A stretch of DNA of 64,000 nucleotides from Alphaproteobacteria bacterium (GTDB taxonomy: Bacteria; Pseudomonadota; Alphaproteobacteria; MPNO01): the NCBI GenBank assembly GCA_965202905.1, contig OZ241868.1:1353699-1417698 (forward strand), written 5' to 3'. This document shows, piece after piece, positions 3,193 through 46,805 of the stretch. Within the stretch, counting starts at the first letter, position 1. Every line of letters begins with the position of its first letter. The translations under genes and the position numbers were made by a program. The notes beneath the pieces were generated by a model, which worked only from the letters and a program-made list of their open reading frames with translations, ran no database searches and was not told the DNA's origin.

Positions 3193-4578
3193 ATGCCGGA
3201 CGATGTCCCGGCGGGCGGTCGCTACGACCCGCGCGCTCACCAGATGATGACGTTCCACAATCGCGTGCCCGCCTTCCGCGAAGGCGCCGACAGCCCGCGC
3301 GCGCTGCTGGAGCGCTGCCTAACGGCGATCGGCGCGCGCGAAGACGAGATCATGGCCTGGGAGGTGATCGCGGACGACGCTGCCCGGGCCACCGCCGACG
3401 AGGCGACCGCGCGCTATGCCGCCGGCCGGCCGCTGTCGCCGGTCGACGGGCTGCCGATCGGCATCAAGGACCTGATCGAGACAGCGGACATGGCCACCGA
3501 GTTCGGCAGCGTTCTCTACGCCGGTCACCGCCCGCTCCAGGATGCGGCCTGCGTCCATGCGCTGCGCGAGGGCGGGGCGGTGATCGTCGGCAAGACCGTG
3601 ACCGTGACCTTCGGCGGCGGCGATCCGGCGCGCACGCGCAACCCGCACGACATTGCCCGGACGCCCGGCGGCTCCTCGGCCGGCGCCGCCGCCTCGGTGG
3701 GCGCAGCCACGGTGCCGGCCGGGATCGGCACCCACGCGCGCGGCTCGACCATCCGCCCGGCGAGTTTCTGCGGCGCCTTCGCGCTCAAGCCGACTTTCGG
3801 GGCAATCAACCGCCAGGGCGTCTTTTCGGCCGCCCACAGCATGGATCACCTCGGCGCCTTCGCCGGCTCGCTGTCCGATGTCTGGATCATCGCGCGCCAC
3901 ATGGCGCGGCTTGCCGGCGGGGATCCCGGCCATCCCGGGCTGTATGGCGGCGCCGCCCCGCCCGCGCCGCGCAAGCCGCAGCGACTCATCCGGCTGGACA
4001 CCGCCGGCCGGGCCGAGACCGACGAGCGCACCGCGGCGGCTTTCGAGAACGCGGTCGAGGAACTGGCCTCGGCCGGCGTCGCCGTTTTCGCGCGCGGCGA
4101 CGATCCCGCCATCGAGGCCTACGAGCGCGCGCTCGCCGAAGTCCCCGACCTGTGGCGCAACCTCTACCGGTTCGAGATGCGCTGGCCGATGCTGCAGCTT
4201 CTCGCCCGCTACCCGGAACAAATCCCGCCGCGGCTCAAGGCGGGGCTCGAAGAGGGCGCCGGCATGACCCAGGAGACCTATCGCGAGGCGCTGGTCCGGC
4301 GCGCCCACTTGCGCGCGCTGCACCGCGAACTCGCCAACCGCGCCGACGGATTCATTACCCTGTCCTCGCCCGGCCCGGGCCCGGTCGGCATGGACCAGGG
4401 CAGCGCGATCTACAACGAGGCGTCCTCGGTGCTCGGCGCACCGGCCATCTCGCTGCCGCTACTCGCCGTCGACGGCGCCCCGGTCGGCGTCCAGCTCCAG
4501 GGCCAGTTCGATGCCGACGAGGCGCTGACGGCCCGCGGCCTGTGGATCGCCGAGCATCTTCTGGGGCGGGCGGTCTAG
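3193..4578 (+). CDS. amidase (amidase-signature family)
   Basis: 461 aa; GGSSAGAAASVGAATVPAGIGTHARGSTIRPASFCG matches the amidase signature region. Confidence 0.85.
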   Translation: MPDDVPAGGRYDPRAHQMMTFHNRVPAFREGADSPRALLERCLTAIGAREDEIMAWEVIADDAARATADEATARYAAGRPLSPVDGLPIGIKDLIETADMATEFGSVLYAGHRPLQDAACVHALREGGAVIVGKTVTVTFGGGDPARTRNPHDIARTPGGSSAGAAASVGAATVPAGIGTHARGSTIRPASFCGAFALKPTFGAINRQGVFSAAHSMDHLGAFAGSLSDVWIIARHMARLAGGDPGHPGLYGGAAPPAPRKPQRLIRLDTAGRAETDERTAAAFENAVEELASAGVAVFARGDDPAIEAYERALAEVPDLWRNLYRFEMRWPMLQLLARYPEQIPPRLKAGLEEGAGMTQETYREALVRRAHLRALHRELANRADGFITLSSPGPGPVGMDQGSAIYNEASSVLGAPAISLPLLAVDGAPVGVQLQGQFDADEALTARGLWIAEHLLGRAV

Positions 4579-4706
4579 TGGATCAACCGAGACATTGAAT
4601 CCCGGCCGATGATGATCTGGCGACCAGAACGCATTCAAATGTCTCGATAAGTTGACCCATCAACAGAAAAACCAGTGGTTCGAAGCGAAAGATTCGAACC
4701 ACTAGG
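4575..4706. repeat. MITE-like repeat, copy A (CTAGTGG termini plus internal 13-bp-stem hairpin)
   Basis: ~93% identical to the reverse complement of 13894-14038; termini ctagtgg...ccactag; hairpin ctagtggttcgaa-gcgaaaga-ttcgaaccactag; overlaps stop codons of amidase (TAG 4576-4578) and the deiodinase-like gene (4702-4704). Confidence 0.8.
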
Positions 4707-5484
4707 ACATACCCGCCGCCTCCTCCTCGGTCTTGTAGTAGTTGCCGGGCACGCGGGGGGCCACATCCTGCGAGGGCGCGGCGCGGCGGTCGCCGGCGTT
4801 CTTGAGCATCACCCGGTAGTCCTCGACCGCCTGCGGGCCGGCGCGTTCGAGGCCTGCCTGGAAGCCGGCCCGGTCGCGGGTGCTCCAGGCGCTGCGCTCG
4901 GAATAGAACGGCACCCATTGTTGCTCGATGCGTCTGTCCTGGAAATCGAGCACGTTCTCGAGCGCCTCCTCGACATCGGCGGCGCCGGTCCAGGCGGATT
5001 TGTAGTGGATGAACCCGCCGCGCCCGATGATCCAGGTCATGTTCGGCAGCATGCCATAGGTGCGGTGCGCAGCGCCGACGAGGTCGTCCAGAAGCACTTG
5101 GCGCCTGAGGCCCGAATACTCGACGAAAGCCCGCGCGACGGCGCGCTTGTCCTCCATCGACGTGTGGTGGCGGTAATTCTCGCCCGGATGGGCCTCGCGG
5201 GTGTAGACGAATACCGAGCGCACGGCCCGGTCGGCGTAGCGGCTGGCGAGTGCCTCCATCGGCTCGGCCGCCATCGCGCAGAAGGGTCAGGTGAACGAGC
5301 CGAACTCGAGGATCGCAACACCCCTCCGCCACAGGGAGTTCATCTCCACCGTCTCGCCGGTCGCGAGATCCTCCAGCGGGAAGGACGGCGCGCGCATGGT
5401 CGCCTTGGGCGCGTGGGCCGCAAACGCCTCGAACTCCTCGCTGCCGCCGGCGAATACGCTGTAATTATATTGGGCCGCATCCAT
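4702..5484 (-). CDS. iodothyronine deiodinase-like thioredoxin-fold protein, candidate selenoprotein (in-frame UGA at 5287-5289)
   Basis: ORF 4702-5274 (starts at annotated M of ...PFCAMAAEP) is preceded in the same frame by TGA and then 65 codons (MDAAQYNYSV...ILEFGSFT) from ATG 5482-5484, which has an AGGAGGA Shine-Dalgarno sequence upstream; the joined sequence FGSFT-U-PFC plus downstream YTREAHP matches the deiodinase active-site region. Confidence 0.55.
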
Positions 5485-5751
5485 TGAACTCGGGTCCTCC
5501 TCTGTCTCCGACCCGTGAAATAGGGCGGTTTTTCGCGCCCGAACAGCATCGGGCGTCAAGATTTCGTGCGCCGCGGATCGCGGTATCGCTCGATCGGCGC
5601 GTCCGGATCGAGGCTGTCGCCCGGGCGCGGCCGCGCGTGAACCGGGCGAACAGCCCAGCGCCCGCGATCGTTGCCCCGCCGCCGGTCGCCGCCGGTACGG
5701 CGCGAACGGAAGATGCGCTAGACTTGGCCGATCGCGACGAGGGAGGCTCCG

Positions 5752-7143
5752 ATGACCGGCACGACGGCAATCCGCGCCCGCTGGGCTCTGACCTGGGACG
5801 GCAATGCGAGCCGCATCGAGACCGACCGGTGGATCCTCGTCGAGGGCGCCCGCATCGCCGCGGTCGCCGACGCCCGCCCGGACGGTGCCGACCGCATCAT
5901 CGACCGGCCGGACACGCTGGTCGCGCCGGGGTTGATGAACATGCACAATCATGGGATCTCGGCGCTCCTGTTCCGCGGCATCGCCGAGGATCGGACGACC
6001 GCGTCCTGGGCCTCCGATACGGTCTACGGCCTGATCATGCCGCTCCAGGGCCTCGCGATGGAGGTGCTGGACGCGGCGGAGTTGCGGGCGGTCACCGCGC
6101 TCGGCTTCCTCGCGCCGCTGAAGAGCGGGGCGACCACGGTGATGGACACTTTCCGCCTCGGCCAGGCGGTGAGCTTCGAGGTCGCAGCGGAGATGGGTTT
6201 CCGGCTCTACGGCATGCCCTACATCTTCTCGACCGAGGATTTGGCGATCGGCGCCGACGGGCTGCCGGTCTATGCCGTGCGCCAGGGCGCGCAGAGCGAT
6301 CTGGAGCGCTGCCTTGGCCTGTTCGAGGCTTATGACGGCGGGGCCGACGGGCGGCTCAGAGTCGGGTTCGGCCCGCACGGCGTCGATACCTGCGATCCCG
6401 AACTGCTGGCCGCGATCCGCGATGCGGCGCGCGAACGCGGCGCGAAGGTCACCATCCACATCTCGCAAAGCGCACCCGAGGACGAGACCGTGCGCGGGCG
6501 CTACGGTCGCTCGCCGGCCGAGCAGCTCGGCCATCTCGGCCTCCTGGGCCCGGACCTGCTCGCCGCGCATTGCGTCTATGCCAGCCGGGACGATCTCGCG
6601 CTGATCGCGCGGTCGGGGACCGCGGTGGTGAACTGCCCGGCTTCGTTCGCCCGCGGCGCGGTGTCCGCGATCTGGCAGCGGACGAGGGATTTGGGGATCA
6701 CGACCGCGATCGGGCTCGACGGGTATTCGATGGACATGGTGGGCGAGATGCGCATGGCCGCCATCGTCTCCAAGCTTGCCACCGGGCTGTCCGAAAAGGC
6801 CGCCGCCTGCGATCTGGTGAGGGCCGCGACCCTCGACAGCGCCGCCGCCCTCGGCCGGTCCGATCTCGGCCGCATCGCGCCGGGGGCGACGGCCGATCTG
6901 GCGGTCTTCGACATGTCCGGCGCGCATCTGGCGCCGGTCAGCGATCCAATCAAGACGCTGGTCTGGCACGCCAACCCGGGCGATGTGGCCGCCGTCCTGG
7001 TCGACGGCGCCATCGTTGTCGAGGACGGCCGCCACCTGCTGGTCGACGAGTCCGCAATCGTCGAGGCCGGCGCCGCCGCCGTCCGCAAAGTCTGGGCCGA
7101 GGGGCTCGAGAGGGGCCTGATCCGGGAGGGCGAGGTTCTTTAG
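5752..7143 (+). CDS. amidohydrolase-family protein (TRZ/ATZ- or SsnA-like aminohydrolase)
   Basis: 463 aa; N-terminal metal-binding motif LVAPGLMNMHNHG; overall TIM-barrel amidohydrolase-like organisation; GGGAGG Shine-Dalgarno sequence before ATG. Confidence 0.75.
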   Translation: MTGTTAIRARWALTWDGNASRIETDRWILVEGARIAAVADARPDGADRIIDRPDTLVAPGLMNMHNHGISALLFRGIAEDRTTASWASDTVYGLIMPLQGLAMEVLDAAELRAVTALGFLAPLKSGATTVMDTFRLGQAVSFEVAAEMGFRLYGMPYIFSTEDLAIGADGLPVYAVRQGAQSDLERCLGLFEAYDGGADGRLRVGFGPHGVDTCDPELLAAIRDAARERGAKVTIHISQSAPEDETVRGRYGRSPAEQLGHLGLLGPDLLAAHCVYASRDDLALIARSGTAVVNCPASFARGAVSAIWQRTRDLGITTAIGLDGYSMDMVGEMRMAAIVSKLATGLSEKAAACDLVRAATLDSAAALGRSDLGRIAPGATADLAVFDMSGAHLAPVSDPIKTLVWHANPGDVAAVLVDGAIVVEDGRHLLVDESAIVEAGAAAVRKVWAEGLERGLIREGEVL

Positions 7144-7181
7144 CGCAGGACCGGCGTCACCTCGGCAACCGCGCCGCCGGC

Positions 7182-7766
7182 TCAGCGCAGGCCGTCTTCG
7201 CCCTTGACCTCGGACACGGTCAGGCCGCCGACACGGGGGAAGGGGCGGCCGGAATCGGTCACCGCGATGGCGACCAGGATCTCGTCGGCGCGCGGGGCGT
7301 CGCACACGCGCACCTCGACGCCGTCGAAATGGCTGCGCACATAGGCCGCGTCCTTGTGGCCGAGCGGGATGTCGATCGCGCTGCCGGGGCCGCCCAGCTT
7401 CTTGACCGAGGGGACCAGCGCCGCGCCCTTCTCGACCGCCTCGCGCAGCGGCGCGCCGAGCTTGGGGTGCAGGATCGCCGCGGCATGCTCCCATTCGCCG
7501 CGCTCGCCGACGATGGCGGCCTTGCCGAAGCTCTCGGCCTGGCCGGGCTGGATGCCGAGCGCGTTCACGCACATCTCTCCCAGCATAGCGCCGAGCTCGG
7601 CGCCGATCTCCATCAGCTCGTCCAGATCCTCGACATAGCGGCCGGCAAAAGGGTTCCTGACGACGGCGATCGCCGCGGCCTTGCGGGTGGGCGGGTCGAC
7701 CGGCCGGCCCATGTCGGTCCGCGTCTCCTCGACGATCACACTGGTCTTGCGGATCTCTGCGCTCAT
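7182..7766 (-). CDS. 'amino acid synthesis' family protein (PF06684-like)
   Basis: MSAEIRKTSVIVEETRT...AAIAVVRNPFAGRYVEDL...GKAAIVGERGEWEHAAAILH...IDIPLGHKDAAYVRSHFD matches this family as I recall it; start chosen at the second Met so that it abuts the stop of the upstream Rieske gene. Confidence 0.65.
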   Translation of the reverse strand: MSAEIRKTSVIVEETRTDMGRPVDPPTRKAAAIAVVRNPFAGRYVEDLDELMEIGAELGAMLGEMCVNALGIQPGQAESFGKAAIVGERGEWEHAAAILHPKLGAPLREAVEKGAALVPSVKKLGGPGSAIDIPLGHKDAAYVRSHFDGVEVRVCDAPRADEILVAIAVTDSGRPFPRVGGLTVSEVKGEDGLR

Positions 7767-7767
7767 C

Positions 7768-8787
7768 TCAGGCCTCGGCTTCGATGCGTTGGGCAATCTT
7801 GCGGCGGAACAGCATGGCCGACGCGTCGAGGTCGAGCCCGACGCGCGGCCCGCCTTCGTAGCCGTCCTCCTCGCGCTGGATCTCCTCGAGCACCGCCTTG
7901 TCCTCGGCGAAGGCGACGCGGAACTGCTCGGAGATCGCCTCGCCCACGCTTGGATCCCCGGCGGCGAAGTTGCGCACGTGCAGCCAATAGTCGAGGCAGC
8001 TCGTCCCGGTCTCCGGCGTCATGAAGTGGCAGGAGAACAGCCGGATCGCGCTCTGCAGGTTGCCTTCGCGCGCACCCGCCCCGGCCGGCGCGGTGCCCAA
8101 ATCGATGATGGATATCGAAGGCGTGTACATCAGATAGTACTGCCAGCGATCGACCTTGCCGGGAAAATTGCCGAACGCCCGGGCGAGCCCGGACGGCTCG
8201 GAATCGAGCGTCCAGCGGTGGGTCGTCACCCCCCAGTCCCGCTCCTCGTATTCGACCGGGACGCCGACTCCATCCGGGCTGCCGAGCGTCGTCGGGTGGA
8301 CGTATTCGACGTGGCTCGGATCGCACAGGTTGTCGCACAGCAGCAGATAGTCGGCCGCGACATGCAGGGCGTCGCCGTGGGCGACACCCCAGCCCGGCTC
8401 GTGGTATTGGGGCAGGTCGTAGATCTCGCTCTCATCGGCCTTGTCGGGCTCGCCCATCCAGATCCACGCCAGACCGAGCCGATCGGCCATCGGGTAGGAT
8501 CGGACGCGGGCGTTGGGCGGGATCACCTCCTGGCCGGGCGCCTTCACGCAGGTCCCCGCGGCATCGAACACCAGCCCGTGATAGCCGCACTGGAGTGTAT
8601 CGCCGACCAGCCTGCCGCGCGACAGCGGCAGCAGCCGGTGGGGACAGCGGTCGCGCAGCGCGACCGGCGCGCCGTCCTCGGTCCGGTACATGACCACCGC
8701 CTCGCCGAGGATGGTCCGGCGCTGGAGCGACCGGTCGAGCTCACTGGACCACGCGGCGACGTACCATGCGTTACGAACGAAGGCCAT
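7768..8787 (-). CDS. Rieske [2Fe-2S] non-heme iron oxygenase, alpha-subunit-like (VanA/PobA-type)
   Basis: Rieske motif CPHRLLPLSRGRLVGDTLQCGYHG; catalytic-domain motif DNLCDPSHVEYVHP; ~339 aa, typical of single-component-type oxygenase subunits. Confidence 0.85.
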   Translation of the reverse strand: MAFVRNAWYVAAWSSELDRSLQRRTILGEAVVMYRTEDGAPVALRDRCPHRLLPLSRGRLVGDTLQCGYHGLVFDAAGTCVKAPGQEVIPPNARVRSYPMADRLGLAWIWMGEPDKADESEIYDLPQYHEPGWGVAHGDALHVAADYLLLCDNLCDPSHVEYVHPTTLGSPDGVGVPVEYEERDWGVTTHRWTLDSEPSGLARAFGNFPGKVDRWQYYLMYTPSISIIDLGTAPAGAGAREGNLQSAIRLFSCHFMTPETGTSCLDYWLHVRNFAAGDPSVGEAISEQFRVAFAEDKAVLEEIQREEDGYEGGPRVGLDLDASAMLFRRKIAQRIEAEA

Positions 8788-24006: not shown

Positions 24007-24093
24007 GCCCAGGTGGCGGAATTGGTAGACGCGCAGGTTTCAGGTACCTGTGACCGCAAGGTCGTGGAAGTTCGAGTCTTCTCCTGGGCACCA
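24007..24093 (+). tRNA. tRNA-Leu (anticodon CAG)
   Basis: GCCCAGGTGGCGGAATTGGTAGACGC...; anticodon loop TTCAGGT; long variable arm; T-arm GGAAGTTCGAGTCTTCC; acceptor stem plus ACCA. Confidence 0.85.
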
Positions 24094-46648: not shown

Positions 46649-46805
46649 CGACGCGTCGGCAATCGTAGAGACTGCCCGATGTGGCGATTTGGCCCGACCG
46701 GCTTGCGGCCACGAAAAACAACCTGCTAAAAGGTCGGAGGAAATGCAAGCCCGCCGACCGTCCGGTCGGGGGGTTTTTGCTGTGCGCTAGCGGAAGAGGG
46801 ACGGG

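Follow-up and report, generated by a model that had tools for sequence, protein, structure and literature searches.

A probable deiodinase-like selenoprotein gene with an in-frame UGA codon in an alphaproteobacterial genome

Does a TGA triplet within an otherwise open minus-strand reading frame terminate translation, or does it encode selenocysteine (Sec)? This question is raised by positions 4702–5484 of a 64,000-nucleotide stretch from an Alphaproteobacteria bacterium (contig OZ241868.1 of assembly GCA_965202905.1, positions 1,353,699 to 1,417,698), referred to below as the window, which has a GC content of 67.8%. The frame opens with an ATG at 5484–5482, runs through 65 codons (MDAAQYNY...EFGSFT) to a TGA at 5289–5287, resumes in the same frame with the residues PFCAMAAEPME, and continues for 194 codons to a TAG at 4704–4702. 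An earlier sequence-only reading had proposed this frame as a selenoprotein gene split in two; the frame that it gave (ATG 5484, TGA 5287–5289, stop 4702) was confirmed, and both motifs that it quoted, FGSFT-U-PFC and YTREAHPGE, are present. We hold, with a probability of roughly 80%, that the window carries a genuine Sec-decoding gene for a deiodinase-like selenoprotein. The catalytic cycle and the substrate of its product are much less certain.

The first line of evidence is the conservation of the UGA and of its flanks. Related genome loci (49) were fetched with peptide patterns drawn from the C-terminal half of the protein only, so the search was blind to the TGA. The loci originate from Alpha-, Beta-, and Gammaproteobacteria, Acidobacteriota, Holophagae, Acidimicrobiia, and Polyangiaceae (at least five phyla) and form, together with the window, a set of 50 genes. 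At the identical column, TGA was found in 49/49 loci, and never TAA or TAG, and this agreement shows the arrangement to be no product of chance. Its context is FGS[FY]T-TGA-P[FY]C in 47 loci and FGSYS-TGA-AYC in the other two, and the closest relatives of the window gene (L053, L054, and L055) carry TGA at this column too. The tblastn alignments run from query residue 1 to approximately 256 and cross the TGA in the 49 loci, across which the ~65 codons ahead of it are conserved. Selection was assessed against L053 and L055, the closest relatives used, which are about 83–86% identical to the window gene. The ratio of nonsynonymous to synonymous substitution rates (dN/dS) over the 60 codons before the UGA was 0.14 and 0.08, respectively, indicating purifying selection, and over the 160 codons after it 0.27 and 0.19; the upstream piece is at least as constrained as the downstream part. 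The conservation of the 65 upstream codons, and the purifying selection acting on them, show that the UGA does not mark a gene boundary.

The synonymous rate (dS) itself also differed between the two parts: it was 0.33 (L053) and 0.62 (L055) after the UGA (window 5287–4807, 160 codons), and 0.62 and 1.69 before it (5484–5290, 60 codons). The lower dS after the UGA is consistent with an added constraint on synonymous sites in and beyond the region of a putative selenocysteine insertion sequence (SECIS).

Protein database searches revealed the same break point from both sides. The joined protein, with U written as C, retrieved 733 homologues, nearly all of them 180–190 aa long and covering the post-UGA part only; the one full-length match was P0005, a Cys orthologue reading FGSFTCPYC. 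The reciprocal search with the N-terminal part returned 453 proteins, nearly all of exactly 65 aa, one of which (P0121) is identical to the window sequence; in other assemblies, this piece is entered as a hypothetical protein of its own (65 aa). As pieces of 65 aa and of 180–190 aa occur everywhere, gene callers must be breaking these proteins at the same point throughout. When 1.84 billion cluster representatives were searched exhaustively with HMMER, a wider family of 1,061 clusters (E ≤ 1e-3) was delimited. Among the best 150 of these clusters plus P0005, the Sec column is occupied by Cys in 92 sequences and by another residue in 11, and 48 sequences start just after the column. The sequence-only reading had left it to the orthologues whether this column holds Sec, Cys, or a gene boundary; they carry TGA (49/49 loci) or Cys (P0005 and, in the same set, 92/103 full-length distant relatives), and no boundary. 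As judged from these alignments, this distribution is the signature of a classical Sec/Cys pair.

A few members deviate at this column. P0286 (139 aa) reads EFGSFT-R-PFC; its Arg could reflect a TGA-to-CGA/AGA substitution, a sequencing error, or a gene-caller artefact. Five full-length relatives (P0254, P0263, P0281, P0316, and P0332) have Ala in place of Sec or Cys. Four of them have Cys at both −3 and +3 (FGCxTAPPC), and P0332 reads APPS, without the +3 Cys. The nucleophile of this Ala-type subgroup appears, from the sequences, to have moved within the same scaffold.

The second line of evidence is the physical linkage of homologues to the genes of Sec biosynthesis and insertion. In approximately 800 kb of related loci, ARAGORN detected four tRNAs, and three of these were tRNA-Sec (in L008, L015, and L037), located 0.5–3.5 kb from the homologue and supported by Rfam RF01852 with 70–74 bits. 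The gene order in L037 (652–5984) is selC-selB-selA-homologue-selD. The homologue in L008 (8166–13848) lies 1.8 kb from selC-selB-selA, and in L015 (8504–9863) selC is found 0.5 kb downstream of the homologue, at the contig end. At the family level, this linkage strongly supports decoding of the UGA as Sec. The fourth ARAGORN call was rejected: the 96-nt 'tRNA-Arg(CCG)' at 2605–2700 (−) of L024 has the length of a tRNA-Sec, and Rfam finds neither a tRNA nor a tRNA-Sec there. The call was probably a spurious one within a GC-rich coding sequence.

The third line of evidence is a hairpin 3' of the UGA. The 60 nt of window RNA that begin with the UGA fold with a minimum free energy (MFE) of −23.1 kcal/mol. 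The helices of the stem-loop extend from +9 to +57, counted from the U of the UGA, and the 6-nt apical loop GAUGGA (5255–5260) is located 26 nt past the UGA; the AUGGA within this loop is invariant in the family and also codes for Met-Glu. In 20/50 genes, no other local fold was as stable as a 42-nt segment beginning 12–18 nt past the UGA, and in 94% of the 50 genes this segment ranked in the top 10% of local stability (median z = −2.4). When the protein was kept fixed and the codons were redrawn from each gene's own usage (synonymous resampling), z was below 0 in 50/50 genes, with a median of −2.2 and p ≤ 0.05 in 29/50. The apical loop was positioned 25–31 nt past the UGA in 49/50 genes, within the published range of 16–37 nt, and capped a helix of at least 7 bp in 29/50 genes compared to 10% of control positions. 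In the majority register, 74% of cells pair, compared to 25–51% after sliding of the partners, and the covariation score was 0.164 compared to 0.096 in shuffles. The Cys orthologue P0005 showed no hairpin at the equivalent place (−6.2 kcal/mol; z = +0.15 and +0.8), although this control consists of one sequence with a lower GC content (49%). At the family level, the hairpin is supported by its stability and position. Taken from these comparisons, the UGA is very likely a selenocysteine codon.

The predicted product is a soluble selenoprotein of 260 residues with a thioredoxin fold, placed in the prokaryotic deiodinase-like family, and by sequence it is most like the iodothyronine deiodinases. 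Its top Pfam match is T4_deiodinase (PF00837) with 25.7 bits, just under the gathering score of 27, followed by AhpC-TSA with 24.3 bits (gathering score 26). All 31 full-length family members tested (31/31) match T4_deiodinase (E ≤ 0.01, best 2e-10), and AhpC-TSA matches equally well. By far the top NCBIfam match is NF038285 'deiodinase family protein' (deiodinase_rel, a 347-position model), which aligns over the catalytic core (residues 24–164). This model is longer and differs in architecture, and the window protein, at 56.8 bits, falls far short of its cutoff of 250 and does not belong to it. When the family profile was searched against all PDB sequences, mouse Dio3 ranked first (E = 3e-7) and Dio2 third. 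The deiodinase likeness noted in the sequence-only reading was upheld by the best Pfam match (below threshold), by the best match of solved structure (mouse Dio3), and by the catalytic residues described next.

Structure modelling was performed with the Cys orthologue P0005 and with N- and C-terminal fragments, the termini being of low confidence. The model has a thioredoxin fold with an N-terminal peroxiredoxin (Prx)-like module, and the Sec position is located at the β1-α1 junction. According to the HMMER alignment to Dio3 (4TR3), S63, T65, U66, and Y94 correspond to Ser167, Thr169, Sec170, and Tyr197, and E97, H99, P100, and H107 to Glu200, His202, Pro203, and His219; in the crystallised Dio3 mutant, the Sec170 position is Cys. 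Ser167, Thr169, Tyr197, Glu200, His202, and His219 are the proton-relay residues of the deiodinases (PMC11592359). Their counterparts (S63, T65, Y94, E97, H99, and H107) are invariant or nearly so in the family and superfamily, and the window protein has retained all family-invariant residues. The single Sec is part of a UxxC motif, U66-P-F-C69, with 47 loci reading U-P-[FY]-C and the other two U-A-Y-C; Cys69, at +3, is presumed to be the resolving residue. Most Cys-type relatives read CP[IVLM][FY], like the UPPF of deiodinases, and have no +3 Cys.

Compared to Dio1-3 (structures 4TR3/4TR4 for Dio3 and 9H48 for Dio2), several differences were observed. The centre of loop-D is 9 residues shorter in the window protein (GENY---------RHH vs SDGWvttdspyviPQH), with the edges kept, and Dio3 residues Trp207 and Asp211 of this loop have no counterparts. 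The window protein contains Cys at +3 (UPFC), where deiodinases read UPPF. It lacks the N-terminal transmembrane anchor: read from the sequence, the N-terminus MDAAQYNYSVFAGGSEEFEAFAAHAPKATMRAPSF has no visible hydrophobic span, signal peptide, or membrane anchor. It adds an N-terminal YNY motif and a C-terminal helical extension of ~70 residues, which is absent from deiodinases, ResA, and Prx and consists of conserved helices (FYSER-AW-RD...GL-RAGPQAV-D) and a tail ending in PRVPGNYY. Finally, the putative SECIS lies inside the coding sequence (CDS), as is typical for bacteria, whereas that of vertebrate Dio is located in the 3' untranslated region. That thyroid hormones serve as substrates is not expected.

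Two sub-forms of the family were noticed, a long one of about 250–255 aa (the window and L001–L030) and a short one of about 222 aa (L031–L049). The tail, P[RK][IV]PGN[FY][FY], is restricted to the long sub-form; the short form has none.

The gene itself is single, intact, and monocistronic, complete with its Shine-Dalgarno sequence, ATG, and intrinsic terminator (Table 1). The chosen ATG agrees with the N-termini of homologues (pattern M-x(3-5)-YNY). The AGGAGGA reported upstream of it is present at 5501–5495, with a spacer of 10 nt rather than the 8 nt stated earlier. The genes on either side are encoded on the opposite strand, and the selenoprotein gene is therefore a self-contained unit. 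GC content at third codon positions (GC3) is 0.86 in the N-terminal piece, 0.89 in the C-terminal part, and 0.88–0.91 in four neighbouring genes. An antisense open reading frame (ORF; 4675–5487, plus strand, 270 aa) spans the whole gene; because its GC content is 0.87 at first codon positions (GC1) and its GC3 is 0.65, it is a shadow (mirror image) of the real gene and not a gene. The sequence-only reading had blamed this antisense ORF for masking the upstream part. The actual cause is the TGA; the ORF list contains this frame as an ORF of 761 aa that ends at 5287. In the whole window, there are 184 TGA sites flanked on each side by 50 or more open codons, as would be expected at 68% GC; none of the 40 with the highest GC3, the 40 inspected, has a redox-motif context.

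Several results weigh against a functional, deiodinase-like selenoprotein gene and are collected here. Within the 64-kb window, no tRNA-Sec was found, and tblastn with the E. coli proteins revealed no selA, selB, or selD; the same search did detect sel genes in other loci at 35–53% identity. The window hairpin taken alone is not exceptional: it reached z = −1.15 against dinucleotide shuffles, 23/200 of which fold equally well, and synonymous resampling of this segment gave z = −1.33 (p = 0.10). An energy of −23.1 kcal/mol is unremarkable on its own in a sequence of 68% GC. A single conserved SECIS structure was not recovered either, since RNAalifold returned only 2 trivial pairs for the 49 post-UGA segments; this is explained by clades that pair in different registers around the invariant AUGGA. 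The bacterial SECIS (bSECIS) model requires a loop of 3–9 nt, an upper stem of at least 4 bp, a G in the first two loop positions, and an MFE ≤ −7.5 kcal/mol (PMC13188914). Applied strictly to MFE folds in this GC-rich material, these criteria pass 26–30% of real sites and 19–25% of controls. The window hairpin agrees with them in its loop (GAUGGA, G first), spacing (26 nt), and energy, but its top stem has 3 bp instead of at least 4. The hairpin drawn in the sequence-only reading (GCGGC-CGAG...CUCG-CCA-GCCGC) exists, but in the window alone it does not exceed chance; as a SECIS candidate it draws its support from stability and position across the family and not from the window hairpin alone, and the strict bSECIS criteria do not discriminate. 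Furthermore, the 49 loci share ancestry, so the counts for the UGA column and for the hairpin do not represent independent events. ORF clustering (~6.5 kb, 50 loci) found no conserved operon pointing to a substrate, with no neighbour in more than 8 loci. All members of the deiodinase-like family are known from computation alone. Both Pfam scores of the window protein stay below their gathering scores, and Foldseek places ResA, TlpA, and Bcp above the deiodinases.

The structural ranking bears on the alternative that survives best, although we regard it as unlikely: the gene would encode a true selenoprotein, but one that is a generic TlpA/ResA- or Prx-like UxxC oxidoreductase or peroxidase, its likeness to deiodinases being due to shared thioredoxin-fold ancestry. 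Candidate families for such a protein are 'Thiol-disulfide isomerase-like, cd02966', 'Prx-like thiol:disulfide oxidoreductase, PF00578', and 'Redoxin family, PF08534', all of them UxxC. Proteins of the TlpA/ResA/CcmG type (e.g., B. subtilis ResA, 1ST9, 2F9S) match in fold. However, they are membrane-anchored or periplasmic and carry W-C-x-x-C, whereas the window protein has F-T-U-P-F-C, a deiodinase-type E-A-H-P block, and no export signal or membrane anchor visible in its sequence. The combination FGS-x-T-U-P and Y-x-x-E-A-H-P...H is the deiodinase relay, and neither the WCxxC of TlpA/ResA nor the PxxxTxxC of Prx. The order of matches argues in the same direction, with Dio3 first and Dio2 third in the profile-to-sequence search, T4_deiodinase as top Pfam match, and NF038285 as by far the top NCBIfam match of the window protein, as do the Cys relatives, most of which resemble deiodinase UPPF and lack the +3 Cys.

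Considerably less probable is a relic, i.e., a member of a true selenoprotein family in an organism that has lost Sec decoding, so that the UGA would terminate translation and the gene would be non-functional. The lack of Sec machinery within the 64-kb window and a hairpin that is among the weaker ones of the family would fit this explanation. Yet Sec genes do not normally lie near the genes that they serve; within 10 kb of the homologue, they were found in just 3/49 relatives. The gene is intact, with Shine-Dalgarno sequence, ATG, terminator, no frameshifts, and all family-invariant residues, and on the short branch leading to L053 (83–86% identical), the dN/dS of the N-terminal piece is 0.14. 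The hairpin sequence is nearly the same as that of L053 as well, with two synonymous changes only, in and beside the apical loop.

That two genes, or a split protein, are present (a 65-aa peptide ending at the UGA and a protein of ~185–190 aa starting at ATG 5274 or 5259) is hardly credible, even though gene callers annotate it so in hundreds of assemblies and an in-frame ATG lies 4 codons past the UGA, because this first ATG is not conserved (Leu or Ile in many orthologues, as in CALAAE and CAIAAE) and has no Shine-Dalgarno sequence before it, the Cys relatives are each one uninterrupted protein, the stop reads TGA in every case and never TAA or TAG (49/49 loci), and the split would, according to the model, fall between β1 and the catalytic helix of the thioredoxin fold. 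Genome-wide reassignment of TGA was ruled out, since two neighbouring genes terminate with TGA as an ordinary stop.

For the favoured Sec-decoding, deiodinase-like gene, the following mechanism is proposed. On the basis of the comparative evidence, the mRNA stem-loop, with its apical loop ~26 nt downstream of the UGA, would recruit SelB and Sec-tRNA(Sec); Sec would be inserted at position 66, and translation would run on to the TAG at 4702. By homology, Sec66 would be placed at the N-terminus of α1 amid the Ser/Thr/Tyr/Glu/His/His relay, as in deiodinases, and its selenolate could attack an electrophilic atom of a small-molecule substrate. Most likely, this atom would be the oxygen in a hydroperoxide or in some other oxidant; the halogen in a halogenated aromatic is a less likely target. 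Cys69 may then resolve the Se-OH or Se-X species so formed to an intramolecular selenenylsulfide, which thioredoxin, glutaredoxin, or a low-molecular-weight thiol could re-reduce. As the Cys relatives mostly have no second Cys and the relay is universal in the superfamily, small-molecule chemistry is suggested rather than protein disulfide exchange. Our rough apportioning of the predicted activity is ~45% for reduction of peroxides or other oxidants, ~25% for reduction of protein or small-molecule disulfides, ~15% for reductive dehalogenation, and ~15% for other reactions.

Quite improbable, in our view, is that the family consists of true reductive dehalogenases and represents the prokaryotic ancestor of the thyroid-hormone deiodinases. 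In that case, Sec66 would take the halogen as X+ from halogenated phenolics or aromatics, and Cys69 would resolve the selenenyl halide. Halogenated phenolic and aromatic compounds are abundant in marine and soil habitats. If true, this would amount to a new cofactor-free, selenium-dependent route of aerobic dehalogenation. The setting cited for dehalogenation is that, both in the window and in its closest relatives, the gene sits amid genes for the catabolism of aromatics and N-heterocycles.

Deiodinases were long held to be animal-specific. Zhang, Fomenko, and Gladyshev predicted a 'Deiodinase-like protein' selenoprotein family in 2005, using Sargasso Sea metagenome data, with 4 Sec and 6 Cys sequences, none of them in complete genomes (PMC1088965). 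Reviews of 2022 and 2026 list the deiodinase-like protein with PF00837, UxxC, and one Sec, and describe nearly all such selenoprotein families as known from bioinformatics only, with largely unknown functions (PMC9312934, PMC13188914). This agrees with the remark in the sequence-only reading that bacterial deiodinase-like selenoproteins had only been predicted in silico; the family is hence already described. The window gene fits the published family, as matched by its description and not to the sequences AACY01143874/MBO99264.1/MFL2763324.1. They share a single Sec within a UxxC motif, PF00837 as best Pfam match, bacterial origin, Cys homologues, and a stem-loop directly 3' of the UGA; the window protein differs in falling just under the Pfam gathering threshold. 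As it fits the description of PF00837, UxxC, and one Sec, the window gene is regarded as a further member of the already predicted family. Selenoproteins of this kind had been predicted before, and the present one is well supported; the sequence-only reading was essentially right in both observation and interpretation.

New in this study are the breadth of the family with UGA conserved in 49/49 loci, the physical linkage to sel genes, the quantitative SECIS evidence, and the retention of the full deiodinase relay despite a truncated loop-D. The family is mis-annotated on a large scale, as hundreds of "hypothetical proteins" of 65 aa and of 185–190 aa, and this systematic splitting implies that selenoproteins are under-counted in many Alpha- and Betaproteobacteria, Acidobacteriota, and Actinomycetota. 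With the full deiodinase relay, no substrate-recognition loop, and an added, presumably resolving Cys, the bacterial proteins offer a natural minimal deiodinase scaffold, suited to asking what the ancestral deiodinase reaction was. The sel-linked loci L037 and L008 are compact cassettes with cognate pairs of SelB and SECIS for the heterologous expression of native selenoproteins.

Table 1. Positions of the predicted selenoprotein gene, its parts, and its neighbours in the window
Feature	Position	Strand	Basis and remarks
Complete selenoprotein CDS, 260 codons	4702..5484	−	65 codons, UGA (Sec66), 194 codons; TAG stop at 4702–4704
Shine-Dalgarno-like AGGAGGA	5495..5501	−	Read from sequence; 10-nt spacer to ATG 5484–5482
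N-terminal 65 codons with YNY motif, APSFPLEDLATGE, and EFGSFT	5290..5484	−	N-terminal strands and β1 of the thioredoxin fold
In-frame UGA, predicted Sec codon (U66)	5287..5289	−	Predicted catalytic nucleophile at start of α1; column comparison and Dio3 alignment
Active-site motif F-G-S-F-T-U-P-F-C, residues 61–69	5278..5304	−	Sequence and Dio3 alignment
SECIS-like stem-loop inside the CDS	5232..5280	−	Fold of window RNA and family-level support
R-E-A-H-P-G-E block, residues 96–102	5179..5199	−	HMMER alignment to 4TR3; nearly invariant across the superfamily
C-terminal extension, residues ~190–260	4705..4917	−	Conserved columns; helices 205–229 in the model, tail of low confidence
Intrinsic terminator	4662..4705	−	13-bp stem overlapping the TAG stop, then TTTTTCTGTT
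Amidase	3193–4578	+	
Amidohydrolase	5752–7143	+	
AA_synth family protein	7182–7796	−	
Rieske/VanA-type oxygenase	7768–8787	−	

The surroundings of the gene (3193–8787) constitute a catabolic-enzyme context, which is partly syntenic with L053 and L054; the context in these two relatives adds hydantoinase A/B and 3-hydroxyanthranilate dioxygenase. The neighbours that recurred in the clustering were either CoxL/CoxS-like genes or, in one marine clade, housekeeping genes. Read from the sequence, the former comprise the large subunit (786 aa) of a CoxL/xanthine-dehydrogenase-like molybdoenzyme and a 163-aa 2Fe-2S small subunit in ~12 loci. This pair is located 2–7 kb from the homologue in L002, L004–L007, L024–L027, and L031–L033, and is the only neighbourhood association seen across clades. 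A gene for an MFS_3 transporter lies immediately upstream on the same strand in L053 and L054 (8337–9719 in both) and in L055 (8360–9670). A divergent MFS gene was found in six related loci (L013, L014, L016, L019, L020, and L023), five of which are labelled Rhodospirillaceae; in the window, no MFS gene adjoins the selenoprotein gene. Elsewhere in the window, a SAM_alpha riboswitch (RF00521, 60.7 bits), pointing to an alphaproteobacterial origin of the DNA, is located at 46671–46749 (+), and a tRNA-Leu(CAG) at 24007–24093 (+).

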